Assembly (NCBI GenBank): GCA_964583985.1
Contig: CAZOYD010000023.1
Location: forward strand, 18,887-42,886
DNA: 24,000 nucleotides
From: an uncultured archaeon
GTDB taxonomy: Archaea > Asgardarchaeota > Lokiarchaeia > Sigyniarchaeales > SOKP01
Reading direction: 5' to 3'
Positions 955 to 21,457 of this stretch are shown one piece after another. Position 1 is the first letter of the stretch. Each line of letters begins with the position of its first letter. A program made the translations under genes and the position numbers. The notes below the pieces were generated by a model, which saw only the letters and a list, made by a program, of their open reading frames with translations, was not told where the DNA came from and did no database searches.

Positions 955-1075
955 AATGCTTTTACTTACTTCGAAATAAATTGATTAATTGTTAAATTAA
1001 GTGAAAGATCAATTTTTATCTTTTTTCAAAGTATTAAGAAAAATAAAATAAAATAAAAAAAAATTCAGAATTGGC

Positions 1076-1690
1076 TTAAAAAGCCATTAAAATTAATAGG
1101 AATCCTACCATTATGATTGTACCACTAACAGTTGATACCCAAGTAAAGATCACAAAACCAATGATGAGCACAACCCACCATGTGTAAGGAACTTTGATAT
1201 CGATTTTATCGAATAATGTTAGAAGTAAAATGATTGCAAATATAATTCCCACTATTGCAATTGCAATATATCCCCCCATAATAAACATTATTGACTCATA
1301 GATTGCCCAACATGCTCCAATTAACGTGACTATTTTAGAAGCAACATAAGTCTTATTCTGGCTTAATATCTCAATGATAGCAGCGGTAATTATTAAAATT
1401 CCTGCTAAATAAGATGGTCCTACTAAATATTCAAAGAGAATTAGTAAGCATCCAATAATTAATAGAACCCACCAAATATAAGGAATCTTTAGTTTCTTAA
1501 AATCAATGATTTCTAATGAATCGAATATCACAAAGGCAATAATCAATCCTATAACACCTAACAAAATAGCTAACCAGTACGTTGTGTAGAAATAATTAAT
1601 GCTATCTTTAATTAGAACTAATGTACCTATGAGAGCAACAACTCTGGAGGCGGTAATTCCAACTTTAGAGCTTTCACCCATATTTATCAC
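1076..1690 (-). CDS. integral membrane protein with internal tandem duplication (2 x ~95 aa, ~3 TM each)
   Basis: The 204-aa ORF is almost wholly hydrophobic. Its two halves align: ASRVVALIGT...FKKLKIPYIWWVLLIIG versus ASKIVTLIGA...KIDIKVPYTWWVVLIIG. The start is either GTG 1690 or ATG 1681. No family recognised. Confidence 0.7.
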   Translation of the reverse strand: MINMGESSKVGITASRVVALIGTLVLIKDSINYFYTTYWLAILLGVIGLIIAFVIFDSLEIIDFKKLKIPYIWWVLLIIGCLLILFEYLVGPSYLAGILIITAAIIEILSQNKTYVASKIVTLIGACWAIYESIMFIMGGYIAIAIVGIIFAIILLLTLFDKIDIKVPYTWWVVLIIGFVIFTWVSTVSGTIIMVGFLLILMAF

Positions 1691-1796
1691 TTTTTATAAA
1701 TATTATATCCTAAATCTGATTAGACTTAGAATATGAGTATAGCTAGAATTTATCGTATTTAATACTACCTATTAAAAGTTTGATAGGCTCAAACTT

Positions 1797-1842
1797 TAAA
1801 AAATTAAAAAATAATGGTTAAAACATTAACACCGAAACCATT
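1797..1842 (-). terminator. hairpin plus oligo-U tracts downstream of mvhD (putative operon terminator)
   Basis: The minus-strand RNA reads AAUGGUU-(16 nt)-AACCAUU (7-bp stem, plus coordinates 1813..1819/1836..1842). It is followed directly by AUUAUUUUUUAAUUUUUU. Oligo-T runs are the usual archaeal termination signal. Confidence 0.4.
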
Positions 1843-1846
1843 GCTT

Positions 1847-1897
1847 AATGATTAGTCTTCTTGTGACTACGGTTTTTTCACAAAAGTCATACTTATC
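1847..1897 (-). promoter_or_regulatory. candidate SECIS element (kink-turn/eukaryote-like layout) in the mvhD 3'UTR
   Basis: It begins 4 nt after the TAA stop of mvhD. The RNA reads GAUAAGU-AUGA-CUUUUGUGA-AAAAACCGUAG-UCACAAGAA-GA-CUAAUCAU. The upper helix is UUUUGUGA/UCACAAGA (8 bp including one G-U, plus one C.A mismatch). The apical loop opens with AAAAA. AUGA (1890..1887) faces GA (1857..1856), allowing tandem sheared G.A/A.G pairs. The lower helix (1890..1897 with 1854..1847) is AU-rich and imperfect. Folded by eye only. Confidence 0.45.
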
Positions 1898-1900
1898 GGT

Positions 1901-2371
1901 TTATTTCTTTTTTTTCCCTTTGACATCGTCCTTCTCTTTAATAGAGTCAGAAAGTCTCGTGGGATTGTTACCTAAATTTTCAATTACTTCTGAAATACGG
2001 GTCACTTCTTGTTGAAATCTTTGACCTTCTGCAGCACTACAGTGAAACATTTGGATTCGTTCTGGATTCAATCCCGCTGTTTTTAGGATCTCTTTGGTAT
2101 ATTCCACATTTTTCGCAGCAACGAGATTGCCAGTTTCATAATCACATTCACCTTCATATCATCCTGCGACAATAACTCCATTAGCTCCCTTTCCTATAGC
2201 CCTCATCATCAAACTTGGCGTGACTCTACCCGTACAATTGATTCTAATCGGTCTGATGGTTGCAGGATATTGTGCTCGGATGGTTCCAGCCATATCTCCT
2301 GCTCCATATCCTCATTTCCAACACATAAACGCAATAATCTTTACTTGATCTTTTACAGTCATATTTTTCAT
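1901..2371 (-). CDS. mvhD: MvhD/VhuD-type hydrogenase delta subunit (HdrA-associated [2Fe-2S] protein), selenoprotein with 2 in-frame UGA (Sec) codons
   Basis: The track lists only the C-terminal 68 aa (1901..2107). Extending in the same frame to ATG 2371..2369 gives 156 codons: MKNMTVKDQVKIIAFMCWK[U]GYGAGDMAGTIRAQYPATIRPIRINCTGRVTPSLMMRAIGKGANGVIVAG[U]YEGECDYETGNLVAAKNVEYTKEILKTAGLNPERIQMFHCSAAEG. The TGA codons are at 2314..2312 and 2161..2159. They fall where the family has Cys (F-x-C-x-W-C-x-Y-x-G-A-D and G-C-H-x-G-D-C-H-Y). The 6-nt gap to the hdrA stop reads AGAGGU, which is SD-like. Confidence 0.85.
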
Positions 2372-2377
2372 ACCTCT

Positions 2378-4348
2378 CTAAATTTCTTCAAGAATTGCAT
2401 CTATTTGAGATTCATATTGGGGTTCACGATAGTATCTAAGAGTAATAGCCTCAGAAGGACAATTAGACAAGCAAGACCCACATCCTCGACAGAGAATCTC
2501 ATCTACATCTGCACCGTCTGGTTTTAATGAAATCGCATTATAAGGACAATTTAATTCGCACAAACCACATTTTGCACATTTTTCCTTATCTACAGTAGCC
2601 CGAATCAGCATTATCCTGTATTTATCTTTTCCCATTATACGGCTTACTGATGACGCGGCAGCTCTTCCTTGGGAAATTGATTCTGAGATCGATTTAGGAC
2701 CTTGTGCTACTCCGGCTAATACAATACCAGGAATTTTTGTGTCAATTGGATTTAAACGTGAATGAAATTCCTTGAAAAAACCATCTTGACTATTTTCAAG
2801 CTTTAATAACTTTCCAATTTTCTCAACACCTTTTGCAGGCATCATTGCACAAGATAAAACCACTAAATCAAACTCGATTTCCTTTAAACCAGAACTTGAA
2901 AGAGTATTTTGCATTATCACTTTAAGATTATGGGTTTCTGGATCTTCATTAATTTTCGAAATATTCGTCCGGACGTATCTTATTCCTTCCTTCCTTGAAG
3001 CTGTATAATATTCTTCATAATCCTTCCCAGCTGCTCTAATATCCATGTATGCTACACTGATATCTGCATCGGGATAGTGTTGTTTGATTAATTTTGTATT
3101 CTTAATTGAAATCATACAACACACCCCAGCACTACAGTATGTTTGCTTATTTAAATCTCGGGATCCTACACATTGTATGAATAGTATGCGCTTTGGAGTC
3201 TTTCCATCTGATGGTCTGGCAAGATGTCCTACTGTCGGACCGTTAGGAGCAAGTAATCTTTCAAGTTTCATTTGAGTTATTACATTAGGATATACGTTAT
3301 AACCTAAATAACCCGTTTCAGGCTCATATTCATCCCAACCTGTCGCTACTATGATGGTGCCTACTTTGATTTCTATAATCTCATCTTCTTGATTAAAATC
3401 AATAGCGTTCACTTCACAAGCTTTTTCGCATAATCCACATTTGATACATCTACTCATATCAATTTGAGCTTTTGAGGGAACAGCTTGAGCAAATGACACG
3501 TAAATTGCCTTTCTAGTATTCATGCCTTCATTGAATTCATCGTATCCATAGGATGGACAAACTTCAAAACAAGCTCCACATCCATTACAATCGCTCTTTA
3601 CATACTTAGCTTTTTTTCTAATTTTCACATTAAAATTTCCAATGAATCCAGAAACATCTTCAACATTGCTGTAAGTATATAGGTTTAAATTGGGAGTTCG
3701 AGCTGCTTGAAGCATAACCGGACCGAGAATTCAAATGCTACAATCATCAGTAGGAAAAGTTCGATCGAGCATAGCCATCTTACCACCTATTGTAGGGCTT
3801 TTTTCCACGAGATGCACTTCAAATCCCTCATCGGATAAATCAATTCCAGCACTCAATCCAGAAACTCCGCCTCCAATTATTAAAGCCTTTTTTGTTATAT
3901 CAACTTCTTTTACAAGTATTTCTTCTAACAAACTGGCCCGAGCAACTCCAGATTTTATTGCATCTTCTGCGGTTTTTTGAGCCCCCACCTTATCTTGGCG
4001 ATGTACAAAACTTGCATGTTCTCGAATGTTAACAAATTCTAAAAACGAAGGATCAATATTCATAGATTCAAGAACGCTTTTGAAAACGGGTTCATGAGTT
4101 TTAGGAGTACATGATGCTACAACAAGGCGATTAGCGTTACTTTCATTCATTTTCTCTTTTATAAATTCCGCTCCTGGTTCAGTGCATAAACTGATATAAT
4201 CTGATGCATCAACCACATTAGGTAAGGTCTTGGCAAATTCAGCGAGTGCTTTAGTGTCAATGATTTCAGCAATATTAATTCCTCAAGCACAAACACTAAC
4301 AAAAATCCGTATTTCTTCAGTATTTTTTGTAATCTCTGCTTCTACCAT
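2378..4348 (-). CDS. hdrA: heterodisulfide reductase subunit A (HdrA), FAD/[4Fe-4S] flavoprotein, selenoprotein with 2 in-frame UGA (Sec) codons
   Basis: Track fragments 2378..3715 and 3731..4216, plus an unlisted N-terminus, join in one frame. The frame runs from ATG 4348..4346 through TGA 4285..4283 and TGA 3733..3731 to the TAG stop at 2380..2378, giving 656 codons. N-terminus: MVEAEITKNTEEIRIFVSVCA[U]GINIAEIID. The junction reads TFPTDDCSI[U]ILGPVMLQAA. The FAD motif is IIGGGVSGLSAG. Four CxxCxxCxxxC(P) ferredoxin motifs are present (CNGCGACFEVCP, CIKCGLCEKACE, CAKCGLCELNCP, CRGCGSCLSNCP). Confidence 0.9.
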
Positions 4349-4535
4349 TGCATATTCTACCTTTTTATTTTTTAGATATCCTCCTACATTAATTACATAA
4401 TATTTCAAAATATTTTTTACTTTTAAAATATCTTATGAGAAAAAATAATTTTAAATCAAAAATCTATTATATATCTTTTATAAGTTATCAATTTAAAAAT
4501 GGTTTGATATTAAAAAAAAATAATTCGTTTTAATA

Positions 4536-4976
4536 ATGCTATTAAATTTATTTCAAGGAACTGGGAGCGCCTCAATGGGTGAAATAATTACTTACTCACT
4601 TGTTGCTGGGGTATCATTTCTCTTTATGATATTATTTTTAAAATTAGGATTAAAAGTGGTTAAATCAAGGACTAAAAAGGGATTTAAATGGTTAGCTATA
4701 AGTATTATTATGCAATTGTTTATGGTTGCCTTGTTAGCTTCTCCATTTATTCTTATAGGATTTGCAGGGGGATTTAATGATAAAGGTCCTTCGCCAGGTT
4801 TGATAATATTCGCCATCATAATAGCAATATTTATGGATCTAAATATTATTAATATCCTTCATAAAACGGGATTGAAAAAAGCTATTTTATGTTTTTTTCT
4901 GATGATCGTTCCACTCGTATTTGGAGGTATTATTGGGTTTTTCGTGGCGCAATTTAGGTTATTTATTCCAATCTGA
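4536..4976 (+). CDS. hypothetical membrane protein (~4 TM)
   Basis: 146-aa ORF with several hydrophobic helices. It is divergent from hdrA and ends in TGA (4974..4976). No family recognised. Confidence 0.6.
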   Translation: MLLNLFQGTGSASMGEIITYSLVAGVSFLFMILFLKLGLKVVKSRTKKGFKWLAISIIMQLFMVALLASPFILIGFAGGFNDKGPSPGLIIFAIIIAIFMDLNIINILHKTGLKKAILCFFLMIVPLVFGGIIGFFVAQFRLFIPI

Positions 4977-4978
4977 AA

Positions 4979-5905
4979 TTAATGTAATTTCACCATTTTA
5001 TTTACGTCTCTATTCATCTTTTCAACTTCAAATCTTGCTGCTTTTCCGTATTGTGAAGGAGAGAACTGTTTATAATTGTTATATGCATAATTCACGTTTC
5101 TTGAAGAATTTATAATTCCACCTAAACCTTGTTTATTAAAACATGATATTATATTATCCATTTTAGCTCCTTGGGCGCCATATCCTGGCATTAAAATAAA
5201 GGCATTTTTCACTACTTTTCTAATTGCGTTCAATTCTTCTGGAAAAGTAGCACCGACAACAATACCTAAGTTATTGAAATTAGAGAACGTGGATAAATTT
5301 TTTCCCCATAAATCCACGAGTCTTGCCATTTGCATATAATTTCGTTCGAGCGTTATATTTTTAACCACTGCTTGGGTTACGGTCTTAGCAACATCTTGAA
5401 GGTTTATACTAAATAAATCTTGGAAATCTTTACTACTCGGATTTGAAGTCTTCACTAATATAAATAATCCTTTTTCAGGATATGTGTCTAAATATGGTTG
5501 AATTGAGTCAATTCCTAAATATCCATTTAAAGTGCAAGCATCCGCTTTATATTCGTTAAAAGTTGAATCAGCATAGGCTTTCGATGTTGAACCGATATCA
5601 TTACGTTTAGAATCCAATATGACTAATAAATCATTTTTATGAGCATATTTAATTGTGTCTTTTAATGCACTTATGGCACCATATTTTTCATAGAAAGCGA
5701 TTTGCGGTTTGATTACAGGAATCAAATCATACGTATTGTCAATAAGTGTTTTATTAAATTCAAATATAATTTTACTTGGATTCTTATATTCATCAATTAA
5801 ATAAGTGGGAATGTGTACTTCATTCTCCAATGATGGATCAAGTCCCATACTTACTATGCTTTTCTTCTCATATATAGATTCAATTAAATTTTCAATAAAA
5901 GTCAT
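4979..5905 (-). CDS. pyrF: orotidine 5'-phosphate decarboxylase, type 2 (long form)
   Basis: 308 aa. Motifs: SMGLDPS near the N-terminus, KPQIAFYEKYG, ILDSKRNDIGSTS (the DxKRxDIG catalytic region) and VKTSNPSS. These are typical of the type-2 PyrF family. Confidence 0.85.
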   Translation of the reverse strand: MTFIENLIESIYEKKSIVSMGLDPSLENEVHIPTYLIDEYKNPSKIIFEFNKTLIDNTYDLIPVIKPQIAFYEKYGAISALKDTIKYAHKNDLLVILDSKRNDIGSTSKAYADSTFNEYKADACTLNGYLGIDSIQPYLDTYPEKGLFILVKTSNPSSKDFQDLFSINLQDVAKTVTQAVVKNITLERNYMQMARLVDLWGKNLSTFSNFNNLGIVVGATFPEELNAIRKVVKNAFILMPGYGAQGAKMDNIISCFNKQGLGGIINSSRNVNYAYNNYKQFSPSQYGKAARFEVEKMNRDVNKMVKLH

Positions 5906-11806: not shown

Positions 11807-12907
11807 TTATAATAATTTTAAACATTTTGCTAAACATCTATTAACACAGGCATTACAATTTATGCATTTTTCGAGATTTTTTAAATCAACCTTATTATCT
11901 TTATCATTAAATACATACAAATTCCTAGGGCATACTTCTATACACACCTTACATCCAATGCATTTTTCTCTCTCAATATTTATTTGTCCGTATGGTTGTA
12001 ATGTATATTCACCAAACAGGAATTTCATTTTCTTTCCACCTTTCTTCCATGTCTTTTCACCTAATTCACTTTTATAGATGGGTGTTAAGCCATTAAAATC
12101 TTCTGCCATAATCGTAGTAATTAACAGAGAAAATGAAATATTCCATAGCAGATAGAAAAGATCAAAAATAATAAACAAATTAAATATAGTAATTAGTCCA
12201 AGAATTATCCCTTCATAAATCCATACTTTTATTTTTCCTGTTCCTATGGGAATGCTTGGTAATAGTATCATTGACCCATAAATTATTATAACAAAAATCA
12301 AAAGTGTATCTAAATAGAGTAATAGATTCAAAATTGGTAAAAAAATTGCAGTAATCCAATAGATAACTGAAATAAAAAGAATTAAGATAAAGAAATATAA
12401 TGAAGCCATTTCTGCTCTGTGAGAGATAGGAAATCTTACTATTCTCTGTGCTTCTGACTTACTAAATTTTTGTTTTATAAAAGAAGGGATATCTTTAGCA
12501 TATACGGGACCGAACTTTATATCCCACTTTGTCTTTTTTTTAATAACGATTGGATCTATTCCGGGAGCGCTTAATTGGGGTATAATTAAAGTTCTATGAG
12601 AAACAAGATCATCGATTCCGCTGGTTTTTATAATTGATAGGACAGAATCCGTATTAAAATCATCTCCGCACGCTCCACACCATACATTGATTCCTTTAGA
12701 TGGAGCAACCAATAAATAACAGTCGAGATTCTTTATTGCTTTTAAAACTCGTTTTACTGTTAAATTAAAATTGCATGTTAGTAATACAGGACTTTCATTT
12801 GTAGGGTTTCCAATTTTAATGAGGGTTGGTTCAACAGGAAAACCCGTCCATCTTAGAAAAAATCCGAGGAATAATTTTATTGACTCTTTTATACTCATTT
12901 TTCTCAT
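11807..12907 (-). CDS. HgcA-HgcB-like fusion protein: corrinoid-binding (CFeSP/HgcA-type) domain + 4 TM helices + C-terminal 2x[4Fe-4S] ferredoxin
   Basis: The N-terminal domain follows the HgcA pattern: IGNPTNESPVLLTCNFNLT...YLLVAPSKGINVWCGACGDDFNTDSV...SHRTLIIPQLSAPGI...KFGPVYAKDIPSFI...RFPISHR. Four hydrophobic helices follow (res ~165-275). The C-terminus carries CIGCKVCIEVCP and CINCNACVNRC plus an extra C (LAKC). The cap-helix codons N74-G81 are at 12688..12665. Confidence 0.8.
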   Translation of the reverse strand: MRKMSIKESIKLFLGFFLRWTGFPVEPTLIKIGNPTNESPVLLTCNFNLTVKRVLKAIKNLDCYLLVAPSKGINVWCGACGDDFNTDSVLSIIKTSGIDDLVSHRTLIIPQLSAPGIDPIVIKKKTKWDIKFGPVYAKDIPSFIKQKFSKSEAQRIVRFPISHRAEMASLYFFILILFISVIYWITAIFLPILNLLLYLDTLLIFVIIIYGSMILLPSIPIGTGKIKVWIYEGIILGLITIFNLFIIFDLFYLLWNISFSLLITTIMAEDFNGLTPIYKSELGEKTWKKGGKKMKFLFGEYTLQPYGQINIEREKCIGCKVCIEVCPRNLYVFNDKDNKVDLKNLEKCINCNACVNRCLAKCLKLL

Positions 12908-12931: not shown

Positions 12932-13594
12932 TTAGGATTGTTTTTTTTTCAACCTAAATAACTTTAAAGTATCTAATAAATAATATTTTTCTTCAATCAA
13001 AGAAAAATTATTACTTTCAAGTCGTATTTCTATATTTCTCAATGATTTAGTGGTCAATTGGGACTTAAAATATGTGATAATTATCAAGGGAGTTCTTATG
13101 AAGAAATAAACAATTTTTTTCCAAATTTTTTTAGGTTTCACCTCATCAACCAAAATAAATTCTCCATTATCTTTTAATATTCTATTGATTTGCTTTAAAC
13201 AAAAATCCTGCTCTTCCCCATAAAATTCACTAAAAGATAAAATGGCGATAATTTTATCAAATGACTTATCCGAAAATTTTTCATCTAATTCTATAACTGG
13301 CATTTTAATAACTTGAATACTCTTAGTTAATCCTTCTAATTCAATTTTTTTTTTAGCAACTTCAAGCATTTTTTCCGAATTATCAATACCGGTAACTATT
13401 ACTCCTTTTTTACCACATAGAATAGCGAAGGTTCCTGTACCCATACCGATATCTAAAATTGTTTCCTTTTTATTTATTAAGTTATCAACAATATACTTGT
13501 TGATTTTAAGTAAGCGTCCTAATGTCAAATTCTTCATTCCCTTGTCGTATCTTTCTGCCTTCTTTTCCAATGCTTTCATATAAACATAAGACAT
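12932..13594 (-). CDS. class I SAM-dependent methyltransferase (with hydrophobic C-terminal segment)
   Basis: 220 aa. Motif I is ILDIGMGTGTFAI, the acidic loop is VTGIDNSEKML, and the post-I/II motifs are IIAILSF and DNGEFILVD. The segment WKKIVYFFIRTPLIIITYF is hydrophobic. The gene ends 24 nt upstream of the hgcAB-like gene on the same strand. Confidence 0.8.
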   Translation of the reverse strand: MSYVYMKALEKKAERYDKGMKNLTLGRLLKINKYIVDNLINKKETILDIGMGTGTFAILCGKKGVIVTGIDNSEKMLEVAKKKIELEGLTKSIQVIKMPVIELDEKFSDKSFDKIIAILSFSEFYGEEQDFCLKQINRILKDNGEFILVDEVKPKKIWKKIVYFFIRTPLIIITYFKSQLTTKSLRNIEIRLESNNFSLIEEKYYLLDTLKLFRLKKKQS

Positions 13595-14176: not shown

Positions 14177-15835
14177 CTACAACCACTTTATTACGTAAAG
14201 TGGCCACTTTTTTAAAACACCTTTAGGGTATTTCCCACTTCTGACCTTATCTAGCATTTCTGACCGAATTTTCAAGAAATCCACTGGATCTTCTTCAATC
14301 AATTGAATTCCTATCCCACCATCTAAAATACACTTTCTAAAATTATCATTCTTGACACAATTCAACAAAATTTCTTTAAAATTCTTTCGATTGATACATT
14401 CTGCTCCATAATTTGAATTCAATATTATCTTCCAGCTTTCATCTATACCCTTTTTGGGAGATACTAATAAAAGCAGATCAATATTTGATTTACTTTCAAT
14501 CCCTAAGCATTTTATTAACATGCGAGGATCTAAAATTTCAAAGGTATTAAAATTAAAGTAGTCACCGGCATAAACCGTATATCCTTTTTTTAAATGTAAA
14601 TTTTCAGAGATTTTTATTGGATATTTTAATTGAAATTCTGAACGCAAAATTTTACCGTTAATTTGAGGGAGAGCTTGTTGATTTACTAATTGGATAACAT
14701 CCCCAATATCTAAATTGATAAATACTTTAGTATCATCAAATCGAGATATTAGAAGCTTTCCAAATTTACTGTTACTATCGGAAATTAATTGTTTTTTTCC
14801 TTTATATTCTAGTACTGGTAAAGTTAAAGGAAATACGGTAAGAATATCTTTTTGTGAAATACCCTTAAGATCCTTATTTATTGTTGCTGCAAATGGTCCT
14901 GTCTCAGATGATACATATAAATTAGTAAATTTTTCTTCTCCTTTTTCCCATTTCATAAATTGACGGATTAAATCCCAATCTCTTGAAGATAATGAACTTA
15001 TACTAAAAATGAGAACTGCTTTTGATAATTTATTAGAAAGCAACTCCTGTATTTCTTTTGCGGCAGTTGTAACACCCTTTTTTTTAACTTTTAAGAGAAG
15101 TTTTTCTAACATCGGGTCAGGTTCAGGATCAACATCATTGAGGGATTTTTGTAACCCTATTTGGAATTTTTCTATATCTGCCCAACCAAGGATTGTAATT
15201 GCTGGAGCGGAAATTACAGAGATATCATTTAATGATAATATTTTTGCGATGATGTTGAGATTTTTTGAAAATTTATATTCGAAAAGAGTATAATTCGAAG
15301 GTTTCATTATTGCTAACATTAATCTCTGGGAGAATTCGGAAGAATATAGTGAGATAAAATTGGTATTTTCTGTATTATTTAATCCATCGATATCAAGCCT
15401 TGAAGGGATAAAAATTATTGCCGAGGATTTAGAATCCAATCCGCTCGATTCAAAAATTGCTTGCATTCCTGGTGCCCAATATAGTTTTACATTCTTTTTT
15501 GACATATGTAGCCATTTTAGCGAATTTATATCATTATTTGTAGTGCCTGAACTATGACATACAATTAAGGGTTCGGAACCATGAAAATTTGCGAGATAAT
15601 CATTAAGATCGATAGAAATTTTTTTAGAATCAGTTTTTTCTCTTTCTATTCTTTCAAAAATATCGGTTACTATAGCTAATCCTGAATTTTTTAAAATATA
15701 ATCAATATAATCTTCTTTTGATGAGATATCTAACCATTTTTTCCAATTGGTAGGTTGAATTTCAGAAAATATTTTATTAAAAAGCAATTGAACCTTGGGA
15801 TCAAAATCGTTTGATATCAATCTATTATCTTTCAC
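14177..15835 (-). CDS. divergent adenylate-forming enzyme (ANL/PaaK/F390-synthetase/GH3-like superfamily)
   Basis: 552 aa. LIVCHSSGTTNND resembles the [ST]SG[ST]TG phosphate-binding motif. LYVSSETGPFA resembles YGxTE. NLDIGDVIQL resembles the TGD motif. Motif order and spacing fit a two-domain acyl-adenylate enzyme. The substrate is unknown. Confidence 0.55.
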   Translation of the reverse strand: MKDNRLISNDFDPKVQLLFNKIFSEIQPTNWKKWLDISSKEDYIDYILKNSGLAIVTDIFERIEREKTDSKKISIDLNDYLANFHGSEPLIVCHSSGTTNNDINSLKWLHMSKKNVKLYWAPGMQAIFESSGLDSKSSAIIFIPSRLDIDGLNNTENTNFISLYSSEFSQRLMLAIMKPSNYTLFEYKFSKNLNIIAKILSLNDISVISAPAITILGWADIEKFQIGLQKSLNDVDPEPDPMLEKLLLKVKKKGVTTAAKEIQELLSNKLSKAVLIFSISSLSSRDWDLIRQFMKWEKGEEKFTNLYVSSETGPFAATINKDLKGISQKDILTVFPLTLPVLEYKGKKQLISDSNSKFGKLLISRFDDTKVFINLDIGDVIQLVNQQALPQINGKILRSEFQLKYPIKISENLHLKKGYTVYAGDYFNFNTFEILDPRMLIKCLGIESKSNIDLLLLVSPKKGIDESWKIILNSNYGAECINRKNFKEILLNCVKNDNFRKCILDGGIGIQLIEEDPVDFLKIRSEMLDKVRSGKYPKGVLKKWPLYVIKWL

Positions 15836-20262: not shown

Positions 20263-20496
20263 ATTATTTCTTTACCAATTGAAATAATAATACCTTTACT
20301 TCCATTATTAATTGCACAAATATTTTTTGTTATATTATGTATTATAAGTGTAGTAAATAATAAAGAAAAATCCAGGAATTATAAAATCGTTTGGCCCGAA
20401 ATTATTGCCTATATTTCATTTATTAACCCAATGCTTTACTACTTCTTAGGATGGGAAAAAATAGAGTTAAATAATATATTTATAAAAAGTGATTGA
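20263..20496 (+). CDS. unlisted small 2-TM membrane protein (PLD-nuclease-N/'PLDc_N'-like), apparent non-canonical ATT start
   Basis: The frame is open from 20239 to TGA 20494..20496. Translation: IISLPIEIIIPLLPLLIAQIFFVILCIISVVNNKEKSRNYKIVWPEIIAYISFINPMLYYFLGWEKIELNNIFIKSD (TM, basic loop with K-x-x-W, TM, YYxxG). A strong SD, AGGTGA (20253..20258), lies 4-7 nt before ATT 20263/20266. The only in-frame ATG is near the 3' end (20431), and there is no in-frame GTG or TTG. The stop overlaps the ABC start region (TGAAATG). Confidence 0.4.
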   Translation: MISLPIEIIIPLLPLLIAQIFFVILCIISVVNNKEKSRNYKIVWPEIIAYISFINPMLYYFLGWEKIELNNIFIKSD

Positions 20497-21457
20497 AATG
20501 AATTCAAACAAGACAAATGAATTAATCGAGTTTCAAAATGTATCTAAGAACTATAAGAATCTATTAGCACTTGATAAAATTTCATTCATAATAAACAAGG
20601 GAGATGTTTTTGGATATATAGGACCAAATGGAGCTGGTAAAACTACTACAATAAAGATTATTGTAGGATTAATTAGAGATTATAGTGGTATAGTTTACTT
20701 TAATGGGAAGGATATATCCAAAAATCATTATCTAATCCATAAATTTATAGGTTATCATCCGCAAGATGCGGGATTTCAAGATTGGAGGACTGTAAACCAT
20801 GTTATGTATACATTCGGGTTATTATCTGGTCTAAAGGGTAATGTTTTGGAGGATAAAATCCAAAAGACTTTAGATTTTGTTAATCTATTAGATGAGAGGA
20901 ACAAAAAAGTAAAATATTTGTCAGGAGGAACGCTTCAAAAATTAAGGTTAGCCCAAGCTCTTATCAATGAACCTGAGATTTTAATACTTGATGAGCCATT
21001 ATCCGGTTTAGATCCGTCTAGCAGGTATCAGATTAAGAATCTAATAAAATTATTAAGCAAGCAGGGAAAAACTATCTTATTTTCTTCTCATATCCTCTCA
21101 GATGTTCAAGATGTAGCCAATAAAGTTGGAATATTGAATCGAGGAAAAATATTACGTATAGGAACACCTGAAGAACTGCAAAATGAATTCAATATTGGAA
21201 ATGAAATTGAAATTGAATATGCTAATGATAATGAAATATTTCTGAACATAGATTCACTCGCATGCATTCAAACTATTGATAAATTAGCATCTTATAAACA
21301 AGTTTTACATTTAAAACCAGAGTTCAATTTAGATAGTGCAATTAATCAAATTTTAAGTTTTTTAATCCATAATAAATCCAAAATTCGAAATTTCAGGACT
21401 ATTAAACCAAGCTTAGAAGATGTATATTTAAAATATGTAAAAGGTGATAATCAATGA
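20489..21457 (+). CDS. ABC transporter ATP-binding protein (ABC-2/DrrA-type exporter ATPase)
   Basis: Walker A GPNGAGKTTT, Q-loop, signature LSGGTLQKL, Walker B ILILDEPLSGLD and H-loop SSHIL. The likely true start is ATG 20498. Confidence 0.9.
   Translation: MIEMNSNKTNELIEFQNVSKNYKNLLALDKISFIINKGDVFGYIGPNGAGKTTTIKIIVGLIRDYSGIVYFNGKDISKNHYLIHKFIGYHPQDAGFQDWRTVNHVMYTFGLLSGLKGNVLEDKIQKTLDFVNLLDERNKKVKYLSGGTLQKLRLAQALINEPEILILDEPLSGLDPSSRYQIKNLIKLLSKQGKTILFSSHILSDVQDVANKVGILNRGKILRIGTPEELQNEFNIGNEIEIEYANDNEIFLNIDSLACIQTIDKLASYKQVLHLKPEFNLDSAINQILSFLIHNKSKIRNFRTIKPSLEDVYLKYVKGDNQ

Follow-up and report, generated by a model that had tools for sequence, protein, structure and literature searches.

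The stretch of DNA examined here, hereafter the window, comprises 24,000 nucleotides (nt) of an uncultured archaeon (GTDB lineage Asgardarchaeota; Lokiarchaeia; Sigyniarchaeales; SOKP01) and was taken from contig CAZOYD010000023.1 of assembly GCA_964583985.1 (positions 18,887 to 42,886, forward strand). On its minus strand, between positions 1901 and 4348, gene callers report a row of short open reading frames (ORFs) that correspond to parts of HdrA and of its partner protein MvhD (also VhuD). Are these fragments the debris of decayed genes, or do they belong to two whole genes in which UGA is read as selenocysteine (Sec)? The second answer had been proposed from the letters of the DNA without database searches (the sequence-only reading), and our analysis leaves us highly confident in it. 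The locus appears to be a bicistronic hdrA-mvhD (vhuD) selenoprotein operon of a Lokiarchaeia/Promethearchaeota-type Asgard archaeon, whose four in-frame UGAs are decoded as Sec through one selenocysteine insertion sequence (SECIS), a lokiSECIS, lying 3' of both genes. The sequence-only reading had passed over the SECIS, although this element is the key to the mechanism.

Two interrupted frames and the columns of their UGA codons

The hdrA gene occupies 2378..4348 of the minus strand and comprises 656 codons from an ATG (4348..4346) to a TAG stop (2380..2378). Within this frame the only stops are two TGA codons, codon 22 at 4285..4283 and codon 206 at 3733..3731. The mvhD/vhuD gene (1901..2362, minus strand) encodes a 153-codon [2Fe-2S] delta subunit of the FlpD family, ends in TAA (1903..1901) and is likewise interrupted only by TGA, at 2314..2312 (codon 17) and 2161..2159 (codon 68); an in-frame ATG at 2371 provides an alternative start. 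Apart from the terminators, TAA or TAG occurs in none of the 809 codons of the two genes, and the other two frames of hdrA contain 12-39 TGA together with 9-26 each of TAA and TAG. The frames and all four TGA positions had been placed correctly to the base by the sequence-only reading, and the peptide motifs that it quoted are exact. As it had also proposed, the called ORFs at 1901..2107, 2378..3715 and 3731..4216 are simply the ordinary ORFs between the TGAs. Public gene calls on the same DNA give the same pieces, the locus being broken by public and standard callers into products of 41, 161 and 445 amino acids (aa) for hdrA and of 44 and 68 aa for mvhD. A search for contigs encoding the 68-aa MvhD fragment returned none. 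The two genes are separated by a 15-nt spacer (2363..2377, minus strand; AGAGGTATGAAAAAT), in which a GAGG motif resembling a Shine-Dalgarno sequence can be read. The shortness of this spacer, together with the single 3' element described below, implies that hdrA and mvhD share one transcript.

Comparison with characterised proteins established the family identity of both products. HdrA was defined by an N-terminal domain, a thioredoxin-reductase-like flavin adenine dinucleotide (FAD) domain, an inserted ferredoxin domain and a C-terminal ferredoxin domain. The window protein is similar over its full length to solved structures: it aligns over residues 11-653 with PDB 5odc_A of the HdrABC-MvhAGD complex (E=3e-203), four further HdrA structures match, and Pfam identifies Fer4 and NAD/FAD-binding domains. 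All 26 conserved HdrA Cys columns are present, two of them as TGA rather than a Cys codon; these columns comprise four in the N-terminal domain, a CxxC pair near the FAD, two sets of four in the inserted ferredoxin, four of the HA4 cluster and two sets of four in the C-terminal ferredoxin. The NCBIfam equivalog models for methanogen HdrA and HdrA2 gave scores of 777, 587 and 553 bits, short of their respective cut-offs of 1100, 1400 and 1300. As judged by these similarities, the protein is classed as a member of the HdrA family and not as a certified coenzyme B-coenzyme M heterodisulfide reductase. The MvhD product matches Pfam PF02662 (FlpD) over positions 1-123 of 123 (E=1e-42), scores 146 bits with the NCBIfam VhuD model and matches PDB 9sfi_K with E=2e-33. 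It thus combines the FlpD domain, the Cys pattern of the MvhD/VhuD/FrhD group and Sec codons at the two Sec positions of Methanococcus VhuD. The best NCBIfam model for the locus is the Methanosarcina HdrA2 fusion NF040770, along which the two products are colinear (HdrA on model positions 1-643, MvhD on 646-773); the scores of 777 and 134 bits both fall under its cut-off of 1100 bits, and the pair is not an equivalog of the fusion. No hdrBC or mvhAG genes were found within the window, nor within the ~7 kb further downstream that can be seen in a related locus (L085).

The sequence-only reading had placed each TGA at a conserved Cys, and alignment to family structures and relatives confirmed that all four fall on Cys/Sec columns. 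Codon 22 of hdrA (VCA[U]GINI) is the second Cys of the N-terminal CxCG motif, equivalent to Cys13 of Methanothermococcus thermolithotrophicus HdrA, and this column holds Cys in all solved methanogen HdrAs. Codon 206 (DCSI[U]ILGP) is the canonical HdrA Sec site; it aligns with the X (Sec197) of Methanococcus maripaludis HdrA in 9sfi_A (FPTDDCAMXILAP) and with Cys205 of Methanothermobacter marburgensis. In MvhD, codon 17 (MCWK[U]GYGAGD) corresponds to the first Sec (X) of M. maripaludis VhuD in 9sfi_K and to Cys16 of M. marburgensis MvhD, and codon 68 (VAG[U]YEGEC) corresponds to the second Sec (X) of 9sfi_K and to Cys67 of M. marburgensis MvhD, beside His68. Three of the four TGAs are therefore Sec columns in the solved M. 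maripaludis HdrA and VhuD (9SFI), as the sequence-only reading had noted for the Methanococcales, and the fourth is an invariant Cys. With 26 conserved Cys columns among the 656 positions of HdrA and six among the 153 of MvhD, the chance of all four TGAs landing on such columns is about 2e-6 by our own arithmetic.

The same columns were then inspected among relatives. When GTDB was scanned with each species represented by one genome, 80 loci were obtained, all from Asgard metagenome-assembled genomes (MAGs) labelled Promethearchaeota, Hodarchaeota, Hermodarchaeota, Thorarchaeota or Odinarchaeota; these loci were translated with TGA as U and then aligned. Their HdrA proteins are 75-93% identical, and the tblastn match covers residues 1-656 in most loci. 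HdrA column 206 is U in all 81 sequences aligned there, and column 22 is U in 76 of 79 (C in three). Column 55, a Cys in the window, is divided between U (32) and C (48), and U is rare at columns 80 (3 U, 78 C) and 601 (1 U, 78 C). The two MvhD columns are almost without variation, with U in 78 of 79 sequences at column 17 (V in one) and in 78/78 at column 68. The combination found in the window, U22 and U206 with U17 and U68, is the commonest among the relatives. HdrA thus holds Sec at five positions among these loci, equal to the five possible positions of the multi-Sec HdrA reported from Lokiarchaeota (Mariotti et al. 2016, PMC4989117), the two sets having been compared by count only. The sequence-only reading had called Sec in the N-terminal CxCG motif unusual. 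This view did not hold up: the frequency of U at column 22 makes an N-terminal Sec standard for the lineage, and multi-Sec HdrA has already been published. Residues 1-21, which precede codon 22, are conserved as protein, and C20 is invariant. Finally, three independent JGI assemblies share all four TGAs and differ from the window over 2.5 kb at one site, a synonymous GTT->GTC change at Val211; JGI contig Ga0315542_1000420 carries this locus.

One relative (L072; JALGVJ010000001.1, Meg22_1012_Bin_233) departs from this distribution, its HdrA having Cys at column 22 and TGA at columns 80 and 601. At column 601 a Cys of the [4Fe-4S] motif in the C-terminal ferredoxin is replaced, and no other Sec in the 80 loci lies outside the N-terminal domain and the CxxU pair.

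The lokiSECIS element behind mvhD

Decoding of the four UGAs would be carried out by Sec-tRNA(Sec) and a Sec elongation factor of archaeal/eukaryotic type, directed by a eukaryote-like SECIS hairpin with the kink-turn core AUGA...GA in the 3' untranslated region (UTR) just past mvhD. Such a hairpin is present on the minus strand at 1846..1900 (the covariance-model match, including conserved flanks). Its core, at 1890..1856, reads AUGA-CUUUUGUGA-AAAAACCGUAG-UCACAAGAA-GA, with AUGA at 1890..1887 and GA at 1857..1856. The element begins 10 nt past the mvhD stop. Its distances from the four UGAs, all of which lie upstream of it, are 271, 424, 1843 and 2395 nt; a single SECIS would thus have to act on codons 0.27 to 2.4 kb upstream and over the cistron boundary. 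It folds into a stem of 8 bp (Watson-Crick or GU) with a basal C.A, an 11-nt loop (AAAAACCGUAG) and a short lower stem. The published lokiSECIS consists of AUGA, a 9-bp stem, an 11-nt loop (A-rich in its first five bases and ending in an ultraconserved G, usually after A) and GA (PMC4989117), and the window element has all of these features. About 45 nt past the SECIS, two T6 runs (1798..1811, minus strand), preceded by an inverted repeat AAUGGUU...AACCAUU, can be read in the sequence and likely mark the end of the transcript. A scan for bacterial-type promoters and terminators did not flag this site, the scan being overall no better than shuffles.

Equivalent elements in 53 loci were located by a pattern needing at least 8/9 pairs and were aligned without gaps. 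AUGA and GA are invariant in the 54 aligned elements. All nine stem pairs change on both sides, a single pair occurring for example as GC in 26, AU in 14 and UA in 10 elements, and no shuffle equalled the observed covariation. Of the stem cells in the alignment, 92% are paired, as against 28-45% with the partners slid; the first percentage is biased upward because the seed pattern demanded at least 8/9 pairs. A loose SECIS pattern alone did not discriminate (4 matches versus 1.8 expected), and a covariance model (R1) was used instead. This model was built from the 53 loci with the window excluded and was run unfiltered on both strands of the window, where it returned a single match, 1846..1900 on the minus strand, with 60.3 bits (E=7.7e-17); the next best scored 11 bits. 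Over the 80 loci R1 found exactly one match in each of 75, always just past mvhD, and 22 of these lie outside the seed. No second SECIS was found by R1 between hdrA and mvhD or upstream, in the window or in any of the 75 loci. Four of the five loci without a match end before or inside mvhD, and the fifth (L084) carries a divergent copy that was seen by eye.

This divergent copy (L084:5393-5612) belongs to the sole full-length relative missed by R1. The conserved 5' flank and an AUGA (ACCGAATAGAATGA) are kept, after which come another AUGA, a stem of 7 bp, a loop of 11 nt (AGAAAAAUGAG), two U.U mismatches and GA; the copy resembles a SECIS that has been duplicated in part or remodelled.

The core is flanked by an invariant G-C pair (columns 9 and 46 of alignment A1). 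Together with an unpaired N-A-U and the tandem G.A/A.G pairs, this would give the layout of a classical kink-turn, in line with PMC4989117. Conservation also extends beyond the published core into both flanks (window 1891..1900 and 1846..1855, minus strand; A1 columns 1-10 and 46-55). CCG stands 6-8 nt ahead of AUGA in 53/54 elements; a C directly follows GA in all 54 and pairs with the invariant G; and ACC is found 3-4 nt further on in 47/54. Watson-Crick pairing accounts only for the G-C pair and one more pair in these flanks, and the remaining conservation may reflect protein contact.

The stop codons of the relatives agree with the published distance rule. No related hdrA ends in TGA, and 19 of 79 mvhD frames meet a TGA near their end; in Lokiarchaeota, HdrA is reported always to end in UAA or UAG, and VhuD may end in UGA near the SECIS (PMC4989117).

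Explanations of the in-frame UGA codons

Several points weigh against Sec insertion through one shared SECIS. To our knowledge, neither proteomics nor 75Se labelling has directly demonstrated that Sec is inserted at this locus or in any Asgard HdrA, and we know of no experiment in which one SECIS has been demonstrated to act over 2.4 kb and two cistrons. No tRNA-Sec and no gene of the Sec machinery (EFSec/SelB, PSTK, SepSecS, SelD) was found in the 24-kb window, the only DNA of the source that was searched, and ARAGORN found no tRNA of any type there. In the window's SECIS the basal position of the stem is the C.A mismatch, and the folding z-score of the element, taken alone, is weak (-1.5). 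The seed pattern inflates the proportion of paired cells; the diversity of pair types and the matches outside the seed are unaffected by it. Rfam SECIS models gave no match, either over the whole window at the gathering threshold or over 1000..5000 at E up to 10, only chance matches to CRISPR-DR and sR5 being returned. This last result is uninformative because standard SECIS models miss lokiSECIS elements, standard SECIS tools having likewise failed in the original report (PMC4989117).

If the TGAs were true stops, hdrA and mvhD would be decaying pseudogenes or would be expressed as separate fragments. The splitting of the locus by standard callers and the lack of visible Sec machinery in the window would both be expected, and yet this explanation is close to refuted and we give it very little credence. 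The same four columns are TGA in ~80 species whose proteins are otherwise still 75-93% identical over the full length, including the parts before each TGA; neither TAA, TAG nor a frameshift has entered the frames; the sole polymorphism between the assemblies is synonymous; and a conserved, covarying SECIS follows the operon. That the TGAs are sequencing or assembly errors for TGT or TGC has nothing in its favour except that TGA is one base away from either codon. With identical TGAs in assemblies from three different JGI samples and TGA at the same columns in ~80 other genomes, the probability of this explanation is negligible.

UGA might instead encode a standard amino acid in this organism, either Trp (genetic code 4) or Gly (genetic code 25). 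Among JGI/IMG proteins there are indeed HdrA relatives of full length that carry W in both Sec columns (P0007, P0012 and P0013; 656-670 aa, with VCQWGINI and CSIWILGP). These evidently come from short contigs that were translated with genetic code 4, a systematic artefact for selenoprotein genes, and their W residues are best read as the product of such code switching. Within the window, TGA closes a 146-aa ORF (4974..4976) and a 322-aa ORF (21455..21457), the latter with a typical ATGA stop/start overlap. The sequence-only reading had listed these two as genuine stops and they stand; its third example, 20494..20496, is weak evidence because only a 21-aa ORF (20431..20496, plus strand), overlapping the start of an ABC-transporter gene, is closed there. 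Some 20 other genes of the window, including two that run off its ends, contain no in-frame TGA, and reading TGA as sense over the window revealed no further credible selenoprotein gene. The four TGAs moreover stand on Cys/Sec columns only, and Trp in these places would eliminate a residue with a redox or ligand role. A reassigned code is, in our estimate, scarcely credible.

It may also be supposed that the UGAs are recoded without all depending on one SECIS. The hdrA UGAs would then be served by another, so far unrecognised signal, by SECIS-independent decoding or by near-cognate (Cys) read-through, and codon 22 might be bypassed by downstream initiation. Action over 1.8-2.4 kb and a cistron boundary is without precedent, the methanogen SECIS acts within the UTR of one gene, and the GTG at 4216 could begin the 161-aa piece. 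However, R1 detects just one SECIS in the window and one in each of the 75 loci, and hdrA never ends in UGA whereas mvhD often does, which is expected if the SECIS acts on every distant UGA of the transcript. The conservation of residues 1-21 with their invariant C20 speaks against initiation downstream of codon 22. We regard divided decoding of this kind as highly improbable. Recoding of the four UGAs as Sec is favoured over pseudogenes or a reassigned code, as the sequence-only reading had argued, and over errors, by the Cys/Sec columns in structures, the conservation in ~80 species, the SECIS itself and the agreement of independent assemblies.

Known counterparts, possible roles of selenocysteine and neighbouring genes

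The arrangement is already known, both from Lokiarchaeota (Mariotti et al. 2016, PMC4989117) and from an Asgard-wide catalogue (Huang et al. 2024, PMC11227280). The sequence-only reading had pointed to the first of these papers for multi-Sec selenoproteins in Lokiarchaeum, in agreement with its content. The published HdrA-VhuD(FrhD) tandems of Lokiarchaeota and other Asgard archaea share with the window a hdrA gene followed on the same strand, after a very short spacer, by vhuD, a multi-Sec HdrA that always includes the position near 200, a VhuD with two Sec, a hdrA stop of UAA or UAG and a single SECIS placed only after vhuD. Nothing of substance differs: the window has 2+2 Sec whereas some Loki pairs have up to six, and its stem has C.A at the base. 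Short spacers or overlaps are the rule for the Loki pairs, and SBP2 was not found in Loki genomes (PMC4989117). The catalogue lists 1439 Asgard selenoproteins, with hdrA and frhD always neighbours and one eSECIS-like element almost always common to both; it reports the Sec trait in 85.9% of Lokiarchaeia/Helarchaeales MAGs, and MAGs of the same accession series as the closest relatives of the window (bin12, bin22, bin41) appear in its context (PMC11227280). The locus is therefore ordinary for its lineage, and the present result amounts to the correct recognition of a known system. What it offers in practice is better annotation: five track fragments become two selenoprotein genes, and public calls with Trp at the Sec columns are wrong. 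The locus also adds to the known cases of the Asgard system, where a single eukaryote-like SECIS seems to act on several UGAs spread over 2.4 kb and two cistrons; this system has been proposed as an intermediate between archaeal and eukaryotic Sec decoding.

The selenoproteins HdrA(u) and VhuD of Methanococcales and Methanopyrus were reportedly described by Wilting in 1997. Their Sec197 in the CxxU motif and both VhuD Sec columns coincide with TGAs of the window, and hdrA-vhuD synteny is shared (9SFI, PMC13518236). The methanogen HdrA differs in having Cys in the N-terminal CxCG, its SECIS is of the archaeal GAA_A type, and its context is one of methanogenesis with vhuAGU and hdrBC, whereas the window has neither hdrBC nor mvhAG. 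Eukaryotic type I SECIS elements share with the window element the 3'-UTR site, the AUGA...GA kink-turn core with tandem G.A pairs and the unpaired A at the start of the apical loop; they can also serve several distant UGAs, as in SelP, which is presumed of the window element too. In contrast to them, the window element has a shorter upper stem (9 positions) and an invariant G as the last loop base, would serve two cistrons of a polycistronic mRNA and is missed by the Rfam SECIS models. The window genes are colinear with the HdrA-MvhD fusion of Methanosarcina HdrA2 (NF040770), but they are separate and contain Sec.

HdrA is the flavin/Fe-S subunit and MvhD its [2Fe-2S] partner; in methanogens the two make up the mobile arm through which electrons enter a flavin-based electron-bifurcating complex. 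Cryo-electron microscopy papers describe this arm as the HdrA N-terminal domain (cluster HA3/A3) and MvhD ([2Fe-2S]), which alternately approach the bifurcating FAD. Sec would thus replace conserved Cys at or beside the redox centres of the HdrA/MvhD arm. HdrA Sec206 is predicted to take the second place in the CxxC/U pair that stands between the MvhD cluster and the FAD, and MvhD Sec17 would occupy the "additional" Cys16 position; HdrA Cys202, HdrA Cys205 and MvhD Cys16 have been singled out as "additional" cysteines, conserved and placed between that cluster and the FAD, with an unidentified ligand bound there (PMC13580544). MvhD Sec68 would be adjacent to the [2Fe-2S] cluster or one of its ligands, and HdrA Sec22 a member of the Cys set at the site of the putative N-terminal shuttle cluster HA3. 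In M. maripaludis, density resembling a selenylsulfide was seen between Cys and Sec197 (PMC13518236), and an earlier reading of a crystal structure had Cys197 ligating the N-terminal cluster of the partner (PMC9012536). Sec22 aligns with MvhD Sec17 when the profile of the HdrA N-terminal domain is compared with that of MvhD, but the match is weak (probability 14%, E=0.002).

All four Sec residues would accordingly map to the arm/FAD interface on the evidence of alignment, where they may serve as cluster ligands or as a Se/S relay. One speculative possibility, which we hold to be rather unlikely, is that they make up a redox relay, based on selenium, on the mobile arm of the bifurcating enzyme. 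Electrons could move to or from the FAD by Se-Se or Se-S exchange if the two arm domains took turns in presenting Sec to Sec206. As an alternative, HA3 could be a [4Fe-4S] cluster in which one to three of the ligands are Sec (columns 22, 55 and 80). Either arrangement would bear on the unsolved route of electrons from MvhD to the FAD.

Two other regions of the window deserve mention. At 11807..12907 (minus strand) a 366-aa HgcAB-like fusion is encoded, which joins an HgcA-type corrinoid domain, transmembrane helices and a C-terminal 2x[4Fe-4S] ferredoxin. It scores 371.5 bits with NCBIfam NF043039, over the 285-bit cut-off, and reads NVWCGACG where the cap-helix motif NVWCAAGK is expected. Immediately upstream on the same strand (12932..13594) lies a gene for an S-adenosylmethionine-dependent methyltransferase. 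A 552-aa ORF without Pfam or NCBIfam match (14177..15835, minus strand) adjoins hisS, and this position is kept in several independent assemblies (L001, L004).

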